Source: a virus
Lineage: Duplodnaviria > Caudoviricetes
IMG/VR virus record: IMGVR_UViG_3300032250_000069
Span: 1-32,503 of that record
DNA: 32,503 bases
Direction: 5' to 3' (one strand)
Shown here one piece after another: positions 2 through 10,350 of the stretch. How positions within the stretch are numbered: the stretch's first letter is position 1; every line of letters begins with the position of its first letter. Both the position numbers and the translations under genes were made by a program. The notes beneath the pieces are model-generated. The model was given only the letters and a program-made list of their open reading frames with translations. It did no database searches and had not been told where the DNA came from.

Positions 2-1444
2 CCTACAGGTACGTTACCAGATAGAGTCAAAGCTAAACCGGGCACTACTATTCCGGCTAAAACATATAGTGGTGAGCTAGTAGAAAATGGCATAACGGCG
101 ACACTTGGGGATTCATATCTTCTTCCAACTAACCCGGGTAATATTTTACCTAAGGGCGAATTGATGCCTACAGCCCAACAGCAGACAGCTCAACAGCAGA
201 CAGCACAGAACATTAACCCGTTTGCGGCTGCACAACGAAAAGTCGAAAGTGGTAATAACGCTACCGCAGTAAGCCCTAAGGGTGCTACCGGTATTATGCA
301 GGTTATGCCTGACACTGCTATGGACCCCGGCTTTGGTGTGCCGAACATCTTTGATTTTGCTGCTGGCATGGGCTACACAGTTAAAGGTCGTACCGCAAAA
401 GAAGCTAAGGCTTTGCTAAATAACCCAGAAATTGGTGGTGCGTTTGGTGATATGTATATGAACGCAATGATTCAAAACTACGGTGGTAACACTACCTACG
501 CCTTGGCTGCATACAACATGGGTCCAAAAGCTACTGACAAGTGGATTGCTGCTGGTGCTGACATTAATAAATTACCTAAAGAAACACGGGATTATATACC
601 TAGAGTAGAAGCTGCGTTCGGTAAGCAAACACAACCATCTGTTATTAAAGATGTCCCAATCACAGCTGATGGTACGATTGTTAAAACTGCTGATGCAAAA
701 CCACCAACTATAGCACAGCAAAAGAAAGTGACTGACTTCTATTTATCAAATCCTAATGCAGTTAGTGGCGATATGCAACGTGCCTTGCGTCAACGTGACC
801 AATTAGTACAACTTGCAGGTATGTATCAACGAGCAGGCATTGGTGATAAATTTGTAGAGTTAAGTACAAAGATTACGGAGCTTGACGAAGGTATGTATTA
901 CCTCCAAGGTATGGATGGTTTGCAACAGTTATCGTACTTTAATAACCCGCTCAAATTAAATGCTGTAGTAAGTCATTTTGCTGGTGGTCCTATTGAATTT
1001 GTACCACGTACTGATGGACTCTACGATATGATGTCTGGACAGAATATGATACGGGAAGGTATAACTGTGGCAGATGTCGGAGTTATTGCTAGAAGCGCAT
1101 TTGATAAAGGATTTGTACAGCAGACTACAGCCATGAACGCCAAGGTTGAGGAGAAACGACTTGAGTCAATGATTAAACGTGAAGAAGACGTATCCAAAAT
1201 AATGGCTGAAACTATTAAGGATTCTATTATCAAGAATATCGAGGGCGGGTATAATTTACGGCAGGAAGTACTTAAAACTCCTGACTACGAAGCTAAACCT
1301 TACGGCGACCAACAGCATATTATAATCACTCCGCGTGTAGGTAGACCGTATCTACTTAATATTGAGGGAGTAACTCAAGAGGTTGATGGTATTAAGGTGA
1401 AAGACTACACAGCATCAAGTATACTTGGCTTACCAACCAGATAA
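2..1444 (+). CDS. Virion-associated lytic transglycosylase (SLT domain) / internal virion protein, 5'-truncated
   Basis: SLT motifs ESGNNATAVSPKGATGIMQVMPDTA and ALAAYNMGP. The frame is open from base 2 (PTGTLPDRVKAK...), so the real start lies upstream of the window rather than at 161. Confidence 0.85.
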   Translation, partial: PTGTLPDRVKAKPGTTIPAKTYSGELVENGITATLGDSYLLPTNPGNILPKGELMPTAQQQTAQQQTAQNINPFAAAQRKVESGNNATAVSPKGATGIMQVMPDTAMDPGFGVPNIFDFAAGMGYTVKGRTAKEAKALLNNPEIGGAFGDMYMNAMIQNYGGNTTYALAAYNMGPKATDKWIAAGADINKLPKETRDYIPRVEAAFGKQTQPSVIKDVPITADGTIVKTADAKPPTIAQQKKVTDFYLSNPNAVSGDMQRALRQRDQLVQLAGMYQRAGIGDKFVELSTKITELDEGMYYLQGMDGLQQLSYFNNPLKLNAVVSHFAGGPIEFVPRTDGLYDMMSGQNMIREGITVADVGVIARSAFDKGFVQQTTAMNAKVEEKRLESMIKREEDVSKIMAETIKDSIIKNIEGGYNLRQEVLKTPDYEAKPYGDQQHIIITPRVGRPYLLNIEGVTQEVDGIKVKDYTASSILGLPTR

Positions 1445-1461
1445 TATGTTAGGATAGGATT

Positions 1462-4400
1462 ATGGCTCTACTAGGTGCGTCATTCGCAAACCCATATTTA
1501 ATTGATGCAAAGGTAGGGGTTACAGCAAACCCATACGAAACAGCAACCCCTGCAACTGGTATCGGTTCCGGGGGTTTATCCCCATCTATGGCTGACTTTG
1601 CAGCGTTAGGTGAAAGCCTAATAAAACCATCGCAGTTCACTATGCCTGAAATGAAACAGGTTGACAAAGTATGGCTCAACCCAACATCTAAACAAGTATA
1701 CGTAAATGGTTTGACCTTTGATGCAGATGACGCATCTTCGGCTTTGCAATCAGAACAGTATCTAGCTGGTCCAGCTCAGGGTGCACCTGAGGGTGCTGGT
1801 TGGACTCCAATAAGTGAGTCATCATATGGTCAGTACCTAAACTCTATCCGTAATCCAAGTCTAGGGCGACTAGCCTCTAAGAACTTTGGTATTGGTGTCG
1901 ATAATATGCAGCTGCTTGCAGGCAGAGGTCTGCAACTATTAGGTGCTGAACAAACTGGACAAGCAATAGTTGACCAACAAGCTCGTGATATACAGAAGTC
2001 TGCACCGTTTGTCCGTGAGTTTTCTAACATTGACTCAGGTGGTGATGCTGTCGATTGGTTCGTGGCTAACTTAGCCCAACAGGGTCCTAACTTACTTGAG
2101 TCAATAGCTGTTGGTGTCGCTGGCTTTGGTGCTGGTACTGCGGTGGGTGGTCCTCTTGCTGGTCTGTCTGCTGGTGTCGCTGGGATATTAGGTAAGGCTG
2201 CAACCAAACAAGCTATTCTGGCTGCGGCTAAGAAGAAGGCTGCGGGCGAAGCTCTTAATGCTGCTGAAAATAAAATACTACGTACTGCTGCCGGTACTGC
2301 TGGTGCTGTAGCTGCGTCTTATGGTAGTAATATTGCCACTGGTGCTGCTGATATTTATGGTGAGATGCGTGAGCAGGGTGTAACTGCTGATGATGATGGT
2401 GCTAGACTCTCGGCACTTGCTGGGTCTCTTCCATACGCTGCACTTGAATCCTTATCTGAATTTGTATTGGCATCTCGACTCTTTGGTGGTATTAAAGGAA
2501 CAGGTAGAGACCTAGCTTCTATCAAAGGTAAAACAGCATTAGGTACAGGTGTTAAACGCTCTGGTGAATTACTAAAACGCTTCGGTGTTGGTGCTGCTGT
2601 TGGCGGTACACTTGAAGGTACGACTGAAGCTGGTCAAGAAGGTATTGTACTTGGATTGTCGGGTCAAGATTTAACAAGTCCAGAATCCCAAAAACGATTC
2701 CTAGAATCCTTTGCAGCTGGCTTTGGTGTTGGTGGTACATTGGGAGGTATAGCTAACCTACGTAGAGGTAAAACACCAGTAGGCGACACGCCTATTAACT
2801 TACTGAACCGAGAGCAACCAGCAGAATTAAGTACAGCTCTTACTGTTGTACCTCAATCAGAAACAGGTGTACCCACTGGTAATGTCACTACTGGTGGTAT
2901 GATGGGTCGCCCAGAATTTATTACTGGTCCTGATGGAACAACTAGAGCTTCACGCCCAAGCGATACAATCTATGTAGGCGGAGCCGCACCGGGTCAATTC
3001 GGACAACAAGGTGTATTAGATATATTCGGACCTGAAGGTGCAACTGTTGCAGAATTGCAACAGCGCAGTACGCTTGAGAACCCGATTGGTATTCCATACT
3101 TAGGTGAACAGCCAGCTAATATTCCGGGCCAAGGTCAGTTACAGTTTTCAGCTCCGGCTCCTGCGCCTACCCCAGTAAATACACCAGCTACACAAATGCA
3201 ACAGGCAATGCAACAAGCTGAGATTGCTAGGGCAATCGAACAGCAACAACTTCTACAAGAGCAACAACGTCAAGCAGACCTTGACCGCCTAAGTATTGTA
3301 GCTAGTAACCAACGTCAGTTAGATTTAATACAGCCTGAGCTTGCACCTGCACCTGCACCTTCATTACCTATGCGTCAAACTCGTGCACCAGACCCACAAC
3401 AGCTACAATTATTTGGTCGTGGTCAAGCACCGAAGCCTTCAATGCGTGAGCGTGTTCGCCTTGGTATTCCTGCACCTCAACAAGAAGCACCTATTACATC
3501 GGCACCTAAAGTTGATTTACGTAGGGGTAAACAGACGTCATTATTCACCCAAGAGGGTGAGCCGACCATAGCTGCTTTGCGTTCTGCTGGTGCTAAGAGT
3601 CCAGTCCGTAGTATCCCAGAGGTAGGTGGCAGTCAGATACCACCAACAGGACAAACAGTTACACCTACTACTATTGCAGCTGCGGTTGCCAAGAAGGGTA
3701 CAGCTGCTAAACTTAAGGCAAAGGAAAAGAAAAATGCCGTTCAAGAGCCAAGCACAACGCAAGTGGATGTACGCAAACAATCCGGAACTAGCGAAGGAGT
3801 ACGAAAGCAAGACGCCAAGCTCCGCAAAACTACCGGAGAGGGCAAAAAAACCACGCAAGAAGAGCAAGGAACAAGTGTACAAGATGTAACCTCCGCAGTA
3901 CCAGAACAAGTCACCACTTGGGACAGACAAAATAGAAGTGGTCGTAATGAAGAATGGCAAGCTGGTGCTGCCGAATCGAACCCCGCATTTAGAGCAGTTG
4001 ATGCTGACTTTATTCCAGCCCATGGTATGGCTAAAGTATCTACCTTAACCCAAGCATATAACGATTTAGTAAATCTATTAACCAATGGTATTGACCCTAA
4101 TAGAACATTATTTACGGCAGGGTTAACTGCTCAAGCAGGGGTTGGAGCGGCAACGGGTACAGCAGGTGGATACGCTTATAGAGATGGACCGTTTATACTT
4201 ACGTTTAGACAAGGAACAAAAGGACAACCAACGCTAGCTGACCTCATCGGAGTCTTAGTAAACCCAGCGAACTCAGAATTAGTATCAATACTTCAGGAGC
4301 AATTCCCTAATATAATGGTTCGGGATTATAATAATGTTGCTGATATTGTAGATAATTCAAAGCTGCCAACACCACCAACAACACCTAAACCTACAGGTAA

Positions 4401-7400
4401 AGATGTTCTAAAGAAAAAGACTACAGTTGAAACAACTAAGGCTACAGGTAAAGATACCTTAAAGCGAAAGCCTAAGATTGTAAATGTTCGCCGTGTTACT
4501 GGCGGTAATGTAGCACCTGAAAAGGTTCGTGACATTGGTTTCCACTTTGGTACAGCGACACAAGTAGCTGACATAAAGAAGTCAATAACTAATCCACGTG
4601 AAGTACAAGTAGATATTGATACTAGCAATTTACTTAGATTATCTGAGCCTGAGTTCGGTGGATGGGCTAACCCTGTATCTGTATTAGCTGTACTGGATGC
4701 CGCTAATATTACTGTACCTGATGCAGTACGTAACTTTGTAAACGGTATAGCTGTATCTGATAAACCAATTATGCGAGGTAAGGAAATACCTACAGCGCAA
4801 CGAGCTGCGTTAGATGCACTTGCTAAAGCGGTGGAATCTAAAGGCTACGCTGGTATTGTTTACGAGAATAAGTTTGAAGGTAATAAGACTGAAGATAGTT
4901 ATATCCTATTTAATATGCCTAGCGATACTAAGCCAGTAGCTCAGGTTTCAGTATCGGAAGTACCAAAGACAGGACTGGCAGCGTTAGTAGCTCAGGTTAC
5001 AGCTCCGCCACAGCCGAAAGAAAAGAAGTCAGGTGAAGTATCTGAAACAACTCTAGATTCCCAGCAAATACTTGAGGATGCCATTGAGACAGTAGAAACT
5101 ACTAAGTCGGCAGTGAGGTACGCAGATGCTATGCGTGAAATTGTTGACGTGTATGTAACCGAAACAAATCAAGCGACCAAGTTGTTCAAGACAGCCAATG
5201 AGTTCCTGTTCGGTACAGAGTCTATTCCCGTAACTGAGTTTGTTAAAGCCCTACAATCATTTGCACTTACGATGCCTAGAATCAACCCACGCTCGCGCTT
5301 GTACAAGTTGCTTAACGATTACAATTTGTTGGATGACTCAGCAATTAAATTACGTGTATCTACTAAGAAGGATGAGGAAGATGTTACCACAGGTGCGAAG
5401 GTAGATGAAACACCTGAGGAAATTGACCGTGTAGCTGTGCAGTTAGCAAACCTAATTAACAATCGTGACGGTGAGTTTGACCGTAAAGCTTTAGCCCGTA
5501 AAGCGGAAGCCTTATACAAACAAGTTGAGGATACATCATTTGCTGTTGGTTCTCGTGGGTCTATCGAAGATTTCTTTAATAACGGTAAGCCAATCGTGGT
5601 ACAGAAACCGGGTACTAACTTCTATGTATTGTCTAGCGTTGAAGAAGCTAAACTATCACGCGAAGAATTTGCTAAGGCTCATGCAGCTGCCCGTAAAGAG
5701 CTCCGTGATTTAGAGCTTGAAGCCGCCGAAGAAGACCAACGAACTGCGCTTGAGTTAAAGTTCCAACAGGAATCCGGAATCCGTGAGGATGACAACATGC
5801 TAGGTGGATTAGCCAACTACTACCGTGCTGATGAGAAACCAAGTCAGCCGATGAAGGCAGGGGCACTACGCTTGTTAGCTAACAAGTTTATATCCAAGCT
5901 ATCACGTAAACCAAAGTTACATGTGTTCCAGAATCTGGAAGATATGCGTAGAACAAATCCCAAGTTGTTTAGAGAAGCTGCTGCTGCGCGTCAGGCTGGT
6001 GACTTTGAAGCAGTTAACGCTGCTGGTATGGCATGGGGTAACACTGTCGTCTTATTCGCTGACAATATTAACGGTGAGCAACACGCTAACTTTGTAATGG
6101 CTCATGAGATTCTGGGTCACGTAGGTTTCCGTGGTCTATTCAGTGACACAGAGCTGAACAAAATCTTACAGACAATCGCAGACTCAGACATACAAGTTAA
6201 CAACGCAGCTACAATTTTATCTGAAGCTCAAAATATTCCATTCCTAGAAGCAGTAGAAGAAGTTCTATCTGACCGAGCAGCTGCTATCGACTCATCTACC
6301 ATGATGAGATTCTGGACATGGATGAAAAACCAACTGAACAAACTAGGATTTAAGTTTAATGATGACGCAGCAAGGTACTTAGTCAGTCTATCACGCAAGT
6401 ATGTGCGTCAAGGTGTGGGTCGCAGTGAGGTCAACGTAAAAACTCTCTTGCAGGAAGCGGCTACAATGCGAGAACTCGAGCGGTCTGATGTTGAGGTATT
6501 AAGGTTTGCCCAACTCGCGCCACAGGGCCAGCAAACAGCAGCCATGAACGCCATGAACCAAAACGTAACTTCGACAGGTGGTTTAGAAGGTATTTTAAAC
6601 TGGTTAAACAATAGCGATACAAAAACTGCTGACTTGCGCCGTAAATATGATGGCACAAAAATAAATACCAAAGATACTATGAAGAATTTCTTTGGGTTAC
6701 TACGCACTCAAGATGATATGGCTCGTGATAGTAAAGGTTCGGCACTTATATTTGGTCTTACTCAGCGTAAAGGTGAGATGCAACAGAAACTAAAAACCAA
6801 ATATGCAAAACTTACACAGCTTGCACACGAAGCTAAGTTCATGATGTTCGGTACAGGACCTGAGCCATTGGAATCACAACAGGCTGGACAGTTACTAGCC
6901 CTTGGTTCTTTAGCTAAAGCCAACCAGTTCACAGACTCACAACTTCAAGATAGATTTGAAGCACCGATTGCATACTCTACAGACCTAGGGCAGATTATTA
7001 TAAACTCAGATGCGTTTGAGTCGCTATCCAAGGCAGGTACTATGACTGTCGAAGATTTCAAAAAAGGTTTCGATGTACAGCTAGGCTTTACAGAGAAGCC
7101 TATGACACCAGAACATAAGACAAAATTAGAAACTGACCGTGACCAAGAAGTTGCTTTGATAGAAGCCCGTAAGAAGCGTGACCTCGAACGTATCCAACGT
7201 AAGATTGCTGATACTACTGATACAAAAATAAAAACATCACTACAAGATACATACAATAAAGCCGAAGATAAGTTTGATGCTATGCTCCGTAGTACTAAGG
7301 CGAACTATAAAACTCAGATTGATAGTCCTACATATAACGCCCCTAACTACGTTAACACTAAAGACATGGCAGAGTACGCATGGACTAAAGATATGACCAA

Positions 7401-10350
7401 GGACAGCATCCAGTACAAAATGTACTTGCAGTTCCGTGAAGCTATCAATGAGAGCCAGATGGATGTGCTCACTGCTAAATATGCTGGTGCTATGTACGAG
7501 CAAGAAAGTATACTTAATCGTGGTATTGACCGAGCATTTACTAAATCCCTAACGGAAGCTGAACGCCGCCTAGTTACTGCTGTGTCGGATGAGTATGACC
7601 GTATTGCTTTGAAAGATTCATCATACGAGAACAACCGATTCAAAATTAATGAGGTGTCTCAAGCTGATGCCGTAGATTTTGTTGAGAAACGTTTCGCTCG
7701 TTCATTTTATAACGACAATGCGCTTAATGATTTTGCATCTACATTGCCGAACTACACGCCTGACGAAGTCAAAGCACTGGTTAATAGTATGCGTAGAAAA
7801 TTACGTGTCAAGATAAACCCTACTGAAGACCCTGCTAGTAAGTCATCCATCTGGGACTTGGCATACTCTATGGAAGAACGTAGCACGTTTACTATCTCAT
7901 TAAACGATGACTCCCTGTATGCCAAACGAAGTATTGCTGGTGGCTATGCCCCCCTATCTCGCCGAGGTAAATTCCAAGTTCGTGTGCAAGCATACACCAT
8001 CGACTCGAATGGTAATGAGGAACCAGTCAAGCTACATCAAGGTCAGCAAGACTCACTACCACTATTCATGACTGAGAAAAAAGACGAGTCCATTGGATAC
8101 GCAGAAGAATTAAACGGGCTACTTACAGGTCAGTACTCTATGCGTGATGCCAACAACCGTGTATCTCCAGTGTACTTGAAAGCACTTGTCAGTGATGTGG
8201 AAACTACCCCTGCACTCGTAGACATCATGCACTATGATGATGTTATGTATGCTCTAAGTCGTTTGGGTGTGCAGATGCCAGTGGCTGACCGTGAGATTCT
8301 GATTAAGAAAGTAACTGCACAGAACTCAAGAGCACGTTCAAACTTACAGCGTGGTGGTGTACCGGGTTGGGATAAAGATGTTGTACGTAGTTCATCTGCG
8401 TTCCTTGAGCAGCAGGCTTATGTTGCAGCTAACAAAACATTCCGCCATCAATTCGATGGTGTACTAGAAAATAACCGTAACTGGTTTGGTGACCGTGACA
8501 AACTGGCAGAACTCAAAGCAAAATGGGAAGCTGCTACAGGCCCAGCTAAAGAACTAGCTGCACGTGAGTACTACCAAGAGAAATACTACTTCGGTAAAGC
8601 CAATGAGAAGGTCGGTGACACTAACGTATTACGTGCCAACTTCTATAAAGAACGTGCTAAGTCACAGCTAGATTGGCAAGACTCTACTGGTGATGTTGTG
8701 TTTGCTGATGACTTCTGGAACAACAATCAGTTCTCACTGAGCGCACGTACTTGGGCAGCGGTATCACAACTCGGTGGTTCTATTGCCACTGGTATTACTC
8801 AGATGCTATCACTACCAACCAACTCATGGGCGTATCTATCTGGATACAACCCTGAGAATAACTTCGGTCTTGGTCTTGGTGCTGGTCGTGCTGGTGCTTT
8901 ACTTACCAAGTTCGCAGTATCTGCGGCTAATCCGAAGTACATCAGTATAGATTTCTTAGATGCACAACTTGCAGAACTCGCACGTACTGGAGCCAATGAA
9001 AGTAAAGACGGTCTTACAGCCAACGAGTTACGATTCCTAAAAGATTTAACCGAAGAACAACGCCTTGATGCAGCACAGTTTAATGCACTGACTGGCACAG
9101 TCCGTGGGCGTAAAAGCCTTATGGGTAACCCAACCTTCCAGAAGTTTGTTCAGACATGGATGTTCCCATTCAGTTACTCGGAACAGTTTAACCGCCGTGT
9201 TACCGTACTGGCTGCATACCGTGGTGAGTATGAACGTCAGATTGCTGCTGGTAAAGATATTGAAGAGGCTGACATAAATGCACGTAACGCAGCAGATAAA
9301 GCTCTTGATGCTACGCAAGGTGACTACTCACAATACAACCGCCCAGCGTTCTTCCGTGGTGGTCTAATGTCATTTGTCTATATGTACAAGCAGTATCCAA
9401 TTATCATGTTGCAACTATTCAAGAACATGGACCGTAAAGGGCAAATCATTATGCTTGGGTCTCTGATACTACTGTCTGGTTTACGTGGTCTGCCGGGTGC
9501 TGATGACATACTTGATATGATTGATGGGTTGATGCAACGCTTAGGATTACAGTTTGCCTCAGTAGAGAAAGAGTTTACTAGACTTACACGAGATGCGCTT
9601 GGTCCAGAGTTAGGTGCCGCGCTTACCCCAGTCATGATGCGTGGTCTACTGGATGCAACCACTGGCTGGTCATTCTCAAACCACTTAGGTCTGGGTGATA
9701 TAGTTCCGGGAACTGCATTGTTTAAACCATCTGCTTCTGCACAAGAGAAGCTACGTGAAGTCGAGAACTTAGCGGGTGCACCTACATCATTTATGCTTGG
9801 TGTGTTTGACTGGGCATCTGGTACTGTACCAGCAGTGATTACAGGTAGGCAACCACTCAGCAAGATACTTACAGATGCACCAGTTAGAGCATTGAAGAAC
9901 GCCTCTGAAGCGTGGAAGTACGCTAGTACAGGTGCAATCCTAGATAGCAAAGGCTATGTGGTGTCCCAAGATGCTGCGGCATGGGAGATTCTAGGTAAGG
10001 CAATAGGCTTCTACCCAAGTCGTGCACAGGTACAAATGGATTGGATGATGGCTGATGACCAAGAAGAAAGATACGGTCAGATGATTAGAAGTGAAGCTAT
10101 CCGCGAAGCAGTAGCAGCCAGATTAAATGGTGACAACGATAGACTTGCGAGCGTACAAGAATATGTTCGTGACTGGAACACCGATGTTAAAGGTACTCGT
10201 CTTGAGATTAGAAACTTTACCGGTGGTGTATCTAAAGCATACAGAGAAGCTGCGAAACCACTAGCAGCTAGGGCACTCAAGTCATCTGCTAGGTCAGGTA
10301 GACAAGAGGCCGAAGAACTTGCTGCTCTGTATGGGTTTGAAGTTCGCTAA
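1462..10350 (+). CDS. Giant (2962 aa) polyvalent internal virion / DNA-ejection protein with ART-like, zincin-like and PLxRFG-like regions
   Basis: SD (AGGA) before the ATG. Gly/Ala-rich hydrophobic N-terminus; HEILGHVG zincin-like motif (~6103); YAPLSRRGKF PLxRFG-like motif (~7945); SEQFNR and QGDYSQYNRP C-terminal motifs. Last gene of the virion module, next to the SLT gene. Confidence 0.8.
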   Translation: MALLGASFANPYLIDAKVGVTANPYETATPATGIGSGGLSPSMADFAALGESLIKPSQFTMPEMKQVDKVWLNPTSKQVYVNGLTFDADDASSALQSEQYLAGPAQGAPEGAGWTPISESSYGQYLNSIRNPSLGRLASKNFGIGVDNMQLLAGRGLQLLGAEQTGQAIVDQQARDIQKSAPFVREFSNIDSGGDAVDWFVANLAQQGPNLLESIAVGVAGFGAGTAVGGPLAGLSAGVAGILGKAATKQAILAAAKKKAAGEALNAAENKILRTAAGTAGAVAASYGSNIATGAADIYGEMREQGVTADDDGARLSALAGSLPYAALESLSEFVLASRLFGGIKGTGRDLASIKGKTALGTGVKRSGELLKRFGVGAAVGGTLEGTTEAGQEGIVLGLSGQDLTSPESQKRFLESFAAGFGVGGTLGGIANLRRGKTPVGDTPINLLNREQPAELSTALTVVPQSETGVPTGNVTTGGMMGRPEFITGPDGTTRASRPSDTIYVGGAAPGQFGQQGVLDIFGPEGATVAELQQRSTLENPIGIPYLGEQPANIPGQGQLQFSAPAPAPTPVNTPATQMQQAMQQAEIARAIEQQQLLQEQQRQADLDRLSIVASNQRQLDLIQPELAPAPAPSLPMRQTRAPDPQQLQLFGRGQAPKPSMRERVRLGIPAPQQEAPITSAPKVDLRRGKQTSLFTQEGEPTIAALRSAGAKSPVRSIPEVGGSQIPPTGQTVTPTTIAAAVAKKGTAAKLKAKEKKNAVQEPSTTQVDVRKQSGTSEGVRKQDAKLRKTTGEGKKTTQEEQGTSVQDVTSAVPEQVTTWDRQNRSGRNEEWQAGAAESNPAFRAVDADFIPAHGMAKVSTLTQAYNDLVNLLTNGIDPNRTLFTAGLTAQAGVGAATGTAGGYAYRDGPFILTFRQGTKGQPTLADLIGVLVNPANSELVSILQEQFPNIMVRDYNNVADIVDNSKLPTPPTTPKPTGKDVLKKKTTVETTKATGKDTLKRKPKIVNVRRVTGGNVAPEKVRDIGFHFGTATQVADIKKSITNPREVQVDIDTSNLLRLSEPEFGGWANPVSVLAVLDAANITVPDAVRNFVNGIAVSDKPIMRGKEIPTAQRAALDALAKAVESKGYAGIVYENKFEGNKTEDSYILFNMPSDTKPVAQVSVSEVPKTGLAALVAQVTAPPQPKEKKSGEVSETTLDSQQILEDAIETVETTKSAVRYADAMREIVDVYVTETNQATKLFKTANEFLFGTESIPVTEFVKALQSFALTMPRINPRSRLYKLLNDYNLLDDSAIKLRVSTKKDEEDVTTGAKVDETPEEIDRVAVQLANLINNRDGEFDRKALARKAEALYKQVEDTSFAVGSRGSIEDFFNNGKPIVVQKPGTNFYVLSSVEEAKLSREEFAKAHAAARKELRDLELEAAEEDQRTALELKFQQESGIREDDNMLGGLANYYRADEKPSQPMKAGALRLLANKFISKLSRKPKLHVFQNLEDMRRTNPKLFREAAAARQAGDFEAVNAAGMAWGNTVVLFADNINGEQHANFVMAHEILGHVGFRGLFSDTELNKILQTIADSDIQVNNAATILSEAQNIPFLEAVEEVLSDRAAAIDSSTMMRFWTWMKNQLNKLGFKFNDDAARYLVSLSRKYVRQGVGRSEVNVKTLLQEAATMRELERSDVEVLRFAQLAPQGQQTAAMNAMNQNVTSTGGLEGILNWLNNSDTKTADLRRKYDGTKINTKDTMKNFFGLLRTQDDMARDSKGSALIFGLTQRKGEMQQKLKTKYAKLTQLAHEAKFMMFGTGPEPLESQQAGQLLALGSLAKANQFTDSQLQDRFEAPIAYSTDLGQIIINSDAFESLSKAGTMTVEDFKKGFDVQLGFTEKPMTPEHKTKLETDRDQEVALIEARKKRDLERIQRKIADTTDTKIKTSLQDTYNKAEDKFDAMLRSTKANYKTQIDSPTYNAPNYVNTKDMAEYAWTKDMTKDSIQYKMYLQFREAINESQMDVLTAKYAGAMYEQESILNRGIDRAFTKSLTEAERRLVTAVSDEYDRIALKDSSYENNRFKINEVSQADAVDFVEKRFARSFYNDNALNDFASTLPNYTPDEVKALVNSMRRKLRVKINPTEDPASKSSIWDLAYSMEERSTFTISLNDDSLYAKRSIAGGYAPLSRRGKFQVRVQAYTIDSNGNEEPVKLHQGQQDSLPLFMTEKKDESIGYAEELNGLLTGQYSMRDANNRVSPVYLKALVSDVETTPALVDIMHYDDVMYALSRLGVQMPVADREILIKKVTAQNSRARSNLQRGGVPGWDKDVVRSSSAFLEQQAYVAANKTFRHQFDGVLENNRNWFGDRDKLAELKAKWEAATGPAKELAAREYYQEKYYFGKANEKVGDTNVLRANFYKERAKSQLDWQDSTGDVVFADDFWNNNQFSLSARTWAAVSQLGGSIATGITQMLSLPTNSWAYLSGYNPENNFGLGLGAGRAGALLTKFAVSAANPKYISIDFLDAQLAELARTGANESKDGLTANELRFLKDLTEEQRLDAAQFNALTGTVRGRKSLMGNPTFQKFVQTWMFPFSYSEQFNRRVTVLAAYRGEYERQIAAGKDIEEADINARNAADKALDATQGDYSQYNRPAFFRGGLMSFVYMYKQYPIIMLQLFKNMDRKGQIIMLGSLILLSGLRGLPGADDILDMIDGLMQRLGLQFASVEKEFTRLTRDALGPELGAALTPVMMRGLLDATTGWSFSNHLGLGDIVPGTALFKPSASAQEKLREVENLAGAPTSFMLGVFDWASGTVPAVITGRQPLSKILTDAPVRALKNASEAWKYASTGAILDSKGYVVSQDAAAWEILGKAIGFYPSRAQVQMDWMMADDQEERYGQMIRSEAIREAVAARLNGDNDRLASVQEYVRDWNTDVKGTRLEIRNFTGGVSKAYREAAKPLAARALKSSARSGRQEAEELAALYGFEVR
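3734..3889 (+). CDS. Nested +1-frame small basic protein (51 aa, MPFKSQAQRKWMYANNPELAKEYESKTP...)
   Basis: AAGGA at 3721-3725, 8 nt before the ATG at 3734. The sequence resembles small MPFKSxAQRxWMYAN proteins I recall from phages (not searched). Confidence 0.55.
   Translation: MPFKSQAQRKWMYANNPELAKEYESKTPSSAKLPERAKKPRKKSKEQVYKM

Follow-up and report, generated by a model that had tools for sequence, protein, structure and literature searches.

We find that the low-complexity linker of a giant phage gene carries, in its +1 frame, a second and far smaller gene that is conserved in sequence yet unannotated, and that, judging from its substitution pattern and family, is almost certainly real and translated. 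The DNA analyzed here (the window, a stretch of 32,503 nucleotides) is a phage record of 32.5 kb whose genes include those for a terminase, a DNA polymerase and a primase/helicase. The explanation that we prefer, with a probability of roughly 0.58, is that the nested gene is a pre-existing, exchangeable cassette with its own ribosome-binding site and ATG, encoding a basic internal head protein that binds DNA. According to this explanation, a small phage gene that already existed would have landed in the +1 frame of the giant gene's linker, and its translation likely starts from its own ribosome-binding site and ATG. Internal initiation on the late mRNA would yield the small protein alongside the giant ejection protein; in the head, a predicted two-helix core would serve for docking, with the Lys/Arg tail neutralizing DNA. 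Nesting likely works because the A/G-rich codons for Lys, Arg and Glu, when read one base back, give a hydrophilic and dispensable linker. The positions of the features are collected in Table 1.

Table 1. Features of the giant gene and its nested cassette (window coordinates).
Feature	Position	Strand	Basis or remarks
Host giant gene, 2962 aa	1462..10350	+	phrog_11358 match, E 5.5e-43
Low-complexity linker with cassette	3019..3951	+	host residues about 520-830; a relative lacks about 47 codons
Shine-Dalgarno-like AAGGA of nested gene	3721..3725	+	sequence
Nested gene, MPFKS-type family	3734..3889	+	+1 frame, 51 aa, 6.1 kDa, pI 10.1
Conserved core, codons 1-34	3734..3835	+	alignment; predicted helices 6-15 and 17-26
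Variable Lys/Arg-rich tail	3836..3886	+	low-confidence prediction, pLDDT 51-59 over residues 41-51

The C-terminus of the host protein is matched by giant structural/PLxRFG proteins from two Pseudomonas phages, F116 and H66, and in a complete close relative the giant gene comes after those for portal, major head, tail, an internal virion protein and an SLT protein (lytic transglycosylase), in that order. A position behind those virion genes is the usual place of podoviral ejection proteins, and the host is likely the last and largest ejection or internal virion protein of a podovirus-type phage. A Pfam search of the host protein gave no match; other nested hosts match ART-PolyVal or DarB-like profiles. 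The hydrophobic fraction is 0.13 in the overlap, 0.20 in the linker and 0.31 over host residues 1450-2962. Directly upstream of the giant gene lies a 5'-truncated gene with a transglycosylase SLT domain (window 2-1444), and in the close relative another small basic ORF follows the major head gene (L273:13201-13488). Further into the host, an HExxH motif (HEILGH, residue 1548, window 6103-6117) falls in a region that is conserved across orthologues and possibly forms a metallopeptidase domain. Compared with two relatives (L081 and L085), the host has about 250 extra residues directly behind the cassette (residues ~836-1161, window ~3970-4945), part of which we take to resemble the ADP-ribosyltransferase motifs of polyvalent proteins; Pfam gave no match there, and another host (L059) matches ART-PolyVal.

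A preliminary description of this DNA had proposed that AAGGA, eight nucleotides and an ATG open a 51-codon ORF, and we reproduce these coordinates (3721-3889): the 51 codons are in the +1 frame relative to the 2962-codon ORF at 1462-10350, the spacing from AAGGA to the ATG (3734-3736) is 8 nt, and the ORF closes with TAA at 3889. The peptide given there is right in sequence but stops at residue 43 of 51; across the overlap the host frame, called a low-complexity linker, indeed reads NAVQEPSTTQVDVRKQ. The nested peptide contains neither Cys nor a hydrophobic stretch. A Pfam search with it found no match, and no profile match to DUF6496 or phrog_2423 was obtained; phrog_1375, for which no curated cut-off exists, is matched weakly (E 3.5e-4, 21.9 bits), as it is by many homologues of the peptide. 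A promoter-like site at 3686-3713 was rejected, being at chance level (2 found, 1.0 expected), absent from aligned relatives and altered in a contig about 91% identical to the window.

An open +1 frame alone is weak evidence for a nested gene, because one also arises in 723 of 2000 recodings that alter the host segment only synonymously and leave the host protein intact; 286 of the 2000 have an open frame together with an ATG or GTG. This commonness of open frames is what would speak for the ORF as an accidental by-product of a conserved motif in the host linker, a reading to which we give practically no credence: it is refuted by substitutions that follow the +1 frame (below), the gene also occurs in stand-alone form, and the host segment tolerates deletion or replacement. 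It is the family match, not openness, that exceeds chance. The family profile, which includes the query, gives the real peptide 84.4 bits, whereas none of the 2000 recodings exceeds 32.2 bits. Of the 71 candidates from a homology search with the peptide, 62 reach E<=0.01, the best of them 1.9e-12.

Selection was assessed by comparing substitutions over the first 34 nested codons in ten chosen pairs, which are not independent of one another. Nine of the pairs differ in the overlap, and in all nine the most variable site is host codon position 1, which is the wobble position of the peptide, whereas host codon position 3 is the most variable in every flank of the ten pairs. Between the window and L081, for example, changes at host codon positions 1/2/3 number 6/1/1 inside the overlap and 89/48/213 upstream. 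Read in this way, the overlap is under purifying selection on its +1 frame. The ~91%-identical contig keeps the SD, start, frame and stop (26 of its 32 differences are listed), with no listed change in codons 1-22 of the nested ORF; the changes within the ORF are distributed 4/1/4 over the codon positions, amounting to 4 peptide and 5 host changes, and show no clean flip. The host-equivalent frame is interrupted by a stop in 23 of 24 stand-alone cores and in none of 14 unbiased nested carriers, and therefore the open host frame of nested copies is itself maintained. Together with the predominance of third-position changes on either side of the overlap, this marks the host frame as a true coding sequence that continues across it.

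The start of the nested gene is similarly marked. Within this host family, 22 of 24 nested starts have an SD match of at least 5 nt, compared with 69 of 1947 other ATG or GTG codons in the same frame, and the starts alternate between ATG and GTG behind the retained SD. Across all distinct nested starts such a match is found at only 11 of 58, and the others have A-rich leaders. The SD is seldom used by Bacteroidota. An A-rich leader also precedes the nested copy in a Flavobacterium phage (Elemovirus), in which the one record checked, that of vB_FspP_elemoB_14-3B, contains an unannotated 42-aa +1 copy at about codon 1220 of the ~3694-aa gp20; a related peptide is matched in 68 cultured Flavobacterium phage records.

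The preliminary description had offered, as an alternative, that ribosomes leave the host frame at an A-rich run. Such a programmed +1 frameshift would produce a giant-protein isoform of ~810 aa with a basic tail, and the +1 frame is in fact free of stops for 36 codons upstream of the nested ATG in the window and in L081, next to an SD-like sequence of the kind that can stimulate +1 shifts. However, this upstream extension is not kept in relatives, and the longest A-run ranges from 2 to 6 across 24 relatives, leaving no conserved slippery run. Of 58 distinct nested copies, 37 have an in-frame stop at most six codons upstream of the start, and in 8 the stop directly precedes the start. Stand-alone homologues, moreover, begin with the same Met-Pro as the nested peptide, and the starts alternate between ATG and GTG as described. 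We therefore consider a frameshift very improbable.

The family to which the nested gene belongs is widespread, comprising 4137 clusters at 50% identity and giving a match in 491 of 599 viral stretches; it is also found in actinophages, cyanophages and fusion proteins. Among the first 80 viral loci, 42 peptides lie in an ORF of at least 700 codons, 5 in one of 250-700 codons and 33 are not nested, and a second scan of 79 loci gave 32 giant-nested, 5 mid-nested and 42 not nested, with no +2 case. After deduplication the 126 copies divide into 56 giant-nested, 9 mid-nested (65/126 nested in total) and 61 alone, the loci of these scans having been fetched with the peptide itself, so that the counts show range and not frequency. 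Stand-alone small genes of MPFKS type, mentioned in the preliminary description, thus exist in number. Unannotated stand-alone copies were also seen in the cultured phages S-CBS2 and P-RSP2 and in C75C1 (L107:4001, L108:4001 and L104:6001). Among 149 newly listed profile hits, 83 exceed 90 residues, nearly all with the module at the N-terminus, and the fused partners include enzyme-like domains (cupin, ParB-like, AAA). At L116:10001 the module opens a 1152-aa ORF that has no Pfam or PHROG match. No description of the family or of the arrangement was found in the literature outside subscription journals and bioRxiv supplements.

The nested copies are not confined to one host. With the cassette masked, the hosts fall into six groups unlinked by BLAST, two of which share phrog_11358 and are probably remote kin, and at least three kinds can be told apart: the giant type of the window, a second giant type and a ~400-aa gene. 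In this last kind the small gene sits near the N-terminus of the host, in the interval from the portal to a virion structural gene (L187:9820-11046, L148:6508-7704), a position from which the ~400-aa gene is probably a scaffold. Nesting in a terminase gene (L151/L153), which makes up one of the six groups, is ambiguous, as the terminase start may be further downstream; these two loci and L062 were kept in the scan counts but left out as host kinds. In three loci (L124, L125, L141) the small gene stands directly behind a giant gene whose homologues hold the nested copy. Nested copies do occur in relatives of the giant gene, in line with the proposal of the preliminary description that a nested frame would explain the linker motif NAVQE..V.V; the NAVQE/DAIQE motif recurs in giant phage proteins because it is the shadow of a hidden nested gene.

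How the cassette is held in its host is best seen in an unbiased set of 20 host orthologues fetched with host residues 1-453 only, of which 3 were too short and 17 informative, some of the latter being near-copies. The family is present in the +1 frame in 9/17, at host codon 670-901 and with an ATG or GTG start. An unrelated basic gene (MPLK-type, phrog_2423) occupies the +1 frame at the same site in 5/17 (codon 790-833), likewise with an SD and an ATG or GTG; this replacement cassette matches phrog_2423 in 4/4 cases, and DUF6496 below the cut-off in 2/4. The remaining 3/17 hold neither cassette, their records being 52-77% complete, and therefore the cassette is not universally needed. Two comparisons capture the exchange directly. 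L100 and L193 agree almost completely as far as the SD and GTG-CC, share no relationship within the cassette and resume their similarity beyond its stop. L085, one of the three orthologues with neither cassette and with a host 75-85% identical to that of the window, has lost ~141 nt (~47 codons) in frame, including SD, start and core, and retains the last codons and the TAA of the nested gene. Immediately before the cassette, host residues ~817-885 of L184 are MORN repeats, and a stretch of L084 looks similar; the slot is therefore also a hotspot for other inserts.

On a host tree of 25 N-termini, the well-supported branches force at least 4 changes of the MPFKS label and at least 3 of the other label; of the 22 branches 7 are left open, and the long one leading to L199 is not reliable. 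Over this same tree, with its 7/22 open branches, the cassette labels are no more clustered than in shuffles. The two families were never found together in one locus among the loci scanned. A search of whole records found no MPFKS copy in 5/5 records, a search made with no positive control, and the second family in only 1/5; the giant-gene regions fetched from F116 and Y7 contain a cassette of neither family. We also rejected the idea that the host arose when two genes flanking the small gene fused, as the loci examined include no host in two separate parts with the peptide in the middle. The simplest reading of these sequences is that old small genes were inserted into, and homologously exchanged within, a dispensable hydrophilic linker.

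These results bear on the claim, made in the preliminary description, of a real overprinted gene. The nested gene is real, but the direction of overprinting is reversed: of the two partners it is the small gene that is widespread, and the residues of the host frame arise as its by-product. De novo overprinting of the host gene, followed by escape as stand-alone copies, would agree with the large nested share of the distinct sampled copies. It is, however, not the pattern that the sequences suggest: the distribution of the nested frame is not narrower than that of the host, the family being far wider than any one host type in its clusters, actinophages, cyanophages and fusions. The gene is also nested in unrelated hosts, and the alternative cassette is mostly stand-alone (72/80 loci). 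We accordingly see hardly any room for de novo birth, and retain insertion of a pre-existing cassette as our reading.

What the small protein does is less firmly drawn from its features. The family alignment contains five invariant residues (M1, S5, Q8, A20 and L33), and the AlphaFold2 model (mean pLDDT 81, 87-94 over residues 1-30) predicts two short helices followed by a loose basic tail. No solved structural relative was found by PDB profile search, Foldseek or VIA; the ESM Atlas returned unnamed clusters only, with DUF3008 at 0.82 as no more than a lead. A search of predicted viral structures led to a 60-aa protein of Barnyard. Its identification as the gp4 capsid accessory protein proved wrong; the 60-aa homologue is gp9, which scores 31.4 bits on the family profile and shares the core motif. 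Patience gp10 scores only 11.6 bits and is linked through Barnyard gp9 (E 3e-6 among 486 actinophage records). Both proteins are encoded directly behind portal-position genes, and in both phages a run of very basic small genes lies behind such a gene (Barnyard L105:2120-2468, Patience L106:3882-4945). In the available part of the Patience study, gp10 is given as a virion protein in Table 1 (PMC4324244), with stringent spectra numbering 1 in particles, and 4 and 2 in infected cells (PMC4324244, Table S1). This distant homologue is thus expressed. The same available part gives 30-33 stringent particle spectra each for Patience gp11, gp12 and gp111 (PMC4324244).

Stand-alone copies of the family lie at most two genes from a portal or terminase gene in eight loci (L005, L019, L033, L036, L039, L047, L049, L072); most other stand-alone neighbors are unannotated (84 proteins scanned). 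In fused proteins, the motif K-x-A follows the module in 53/71 cases (76 occurrences, against 34.4 +/- 4.7 in shuffles), and it is not enriched further along (74 vs 86); K-x-A may represent a head-protease site. Taken as a whole, we infer with somewhat better than even odds that the nested peptide is an internal head protein binding packaged DNA. More tentatively, and with the odds against it, the disordered linkers of giant ejection and scaffold proteins in phages could be a general landing slot for small basic head peptides that can stand in for one another, and the MPFKS module a portable head-targeting or DNA-binding tag that is cleaved at K-x-A when fused. If true, fused MPFKS modules would carry unrelated passengers into the capsid.

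Two other roles for a real gene have to be weighed. The protein could act in the infected cell, for instance by helping the giant protein to fold or assemble, or by regulating through binding to nucleic acids or ribosomes. The small gene keeps its link with the giant gene, whether within it or as the next gene behind it; some proteins fused to the module resemble enzymes, and the Patience gp10 spectra tabulated in the available part of that study are more numerous in cells than in particles (PMC4324244). On the other hand, an unrelated family can replace the peptide and unrelated host genes carry it, which argues against one specific partner, and its neighbors are often head genes; we regard a role in the cell as unlikely. 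Alternatively, the protein could dock onto the capsid or portal as an accessory that stabilizes the shell, as Patience and Adjutor gp4 do. The compact, conserved two-helix core that is predicted and the frequent adjacency of portal genes would suit such a role, as would an unmodelled small helix under the Patience three-fold axes, as described in the available text of PMC11965321. However, neither Adjutor gp4 (2.1 bits) nor Barnyard gp3 proved similar, and Patience gp4 was absent from the reported matches. The family is also found in both podoviruses and siphoviruses, phages that likely differ greatly in their capsid proteins, and we hold shell docking to be decidedly improbable. An internal head protein binding DNA therefore remains the role that we favor.

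Nested genes are usually read as de novo overprints or as fixed pairs, and here an old family moves among four states: stand-alone, adjacent, nested and fused. A nested slot that exchanges two unrelated genes offers a natural series for the birth of overlaps by insertion. The unannotated copies in the Elemovirus, S-CBS2, P-RSP2 and C75C1 records amount to a systematic annotation gap, and the cultured Elemovirus carrier makes the function directly testable.

Among known systems, the T4 internal proteins are small basic head proteins with a capsid-targeting N-terminus. The MPFKS family may be analogous to them, being small and basic and having, in fused forms, an N-terminal module followed by a candidate protease site. 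Barnyard gp9 and Patience gp10 (phrog_1375, a weak match) are likewise small and basic, and the former has the core motif; unlike the window copy, they are stand-alone genes. Nested phage genes as such are already an established kind. In lambda Rz/Rz1, as in the window, a small phage gene lies wholly inside another in the +1 frame and is often missed (PMC6139136); the available text of the Rz/Rz1 survey reports embedded and separated layouts and 196 o-spanins missed by annotation, and describes no family that mixes embedded with overlapped or separated members (PMC6139136). Rz and Rz1 are, according to that text, lysis proteins of one complex (PMC6139136), whereas the MPFKS family occurs nested, stand-alone and fused, in a host of ~3000 aa, with no Cys for a lipobox and in a slot that also takes an unrelated gene. 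Similar to phiX174 E within D, as presented in the accessible part of PMC8227390, the overlap is internal and the partner frame is rich in disorder, but the MPFKS nested frame is widespread and its pattern fits insertion and not de novo birth. The embedded ORFs of Patience are also nested on the same strand behind a strong RBS and were shown to be translated (PMC4324244); in the available part of that study they lack close relatives in the databases, and their conservation is ambiguous or absent (PMC4324244), whereas the ORF in the window is under clear selection. As far as the available parts of these sources go, it is the mixture of states and the swappable slot that set the MPFKS family apart from Rz/Rz1, phiX174 and Patience.
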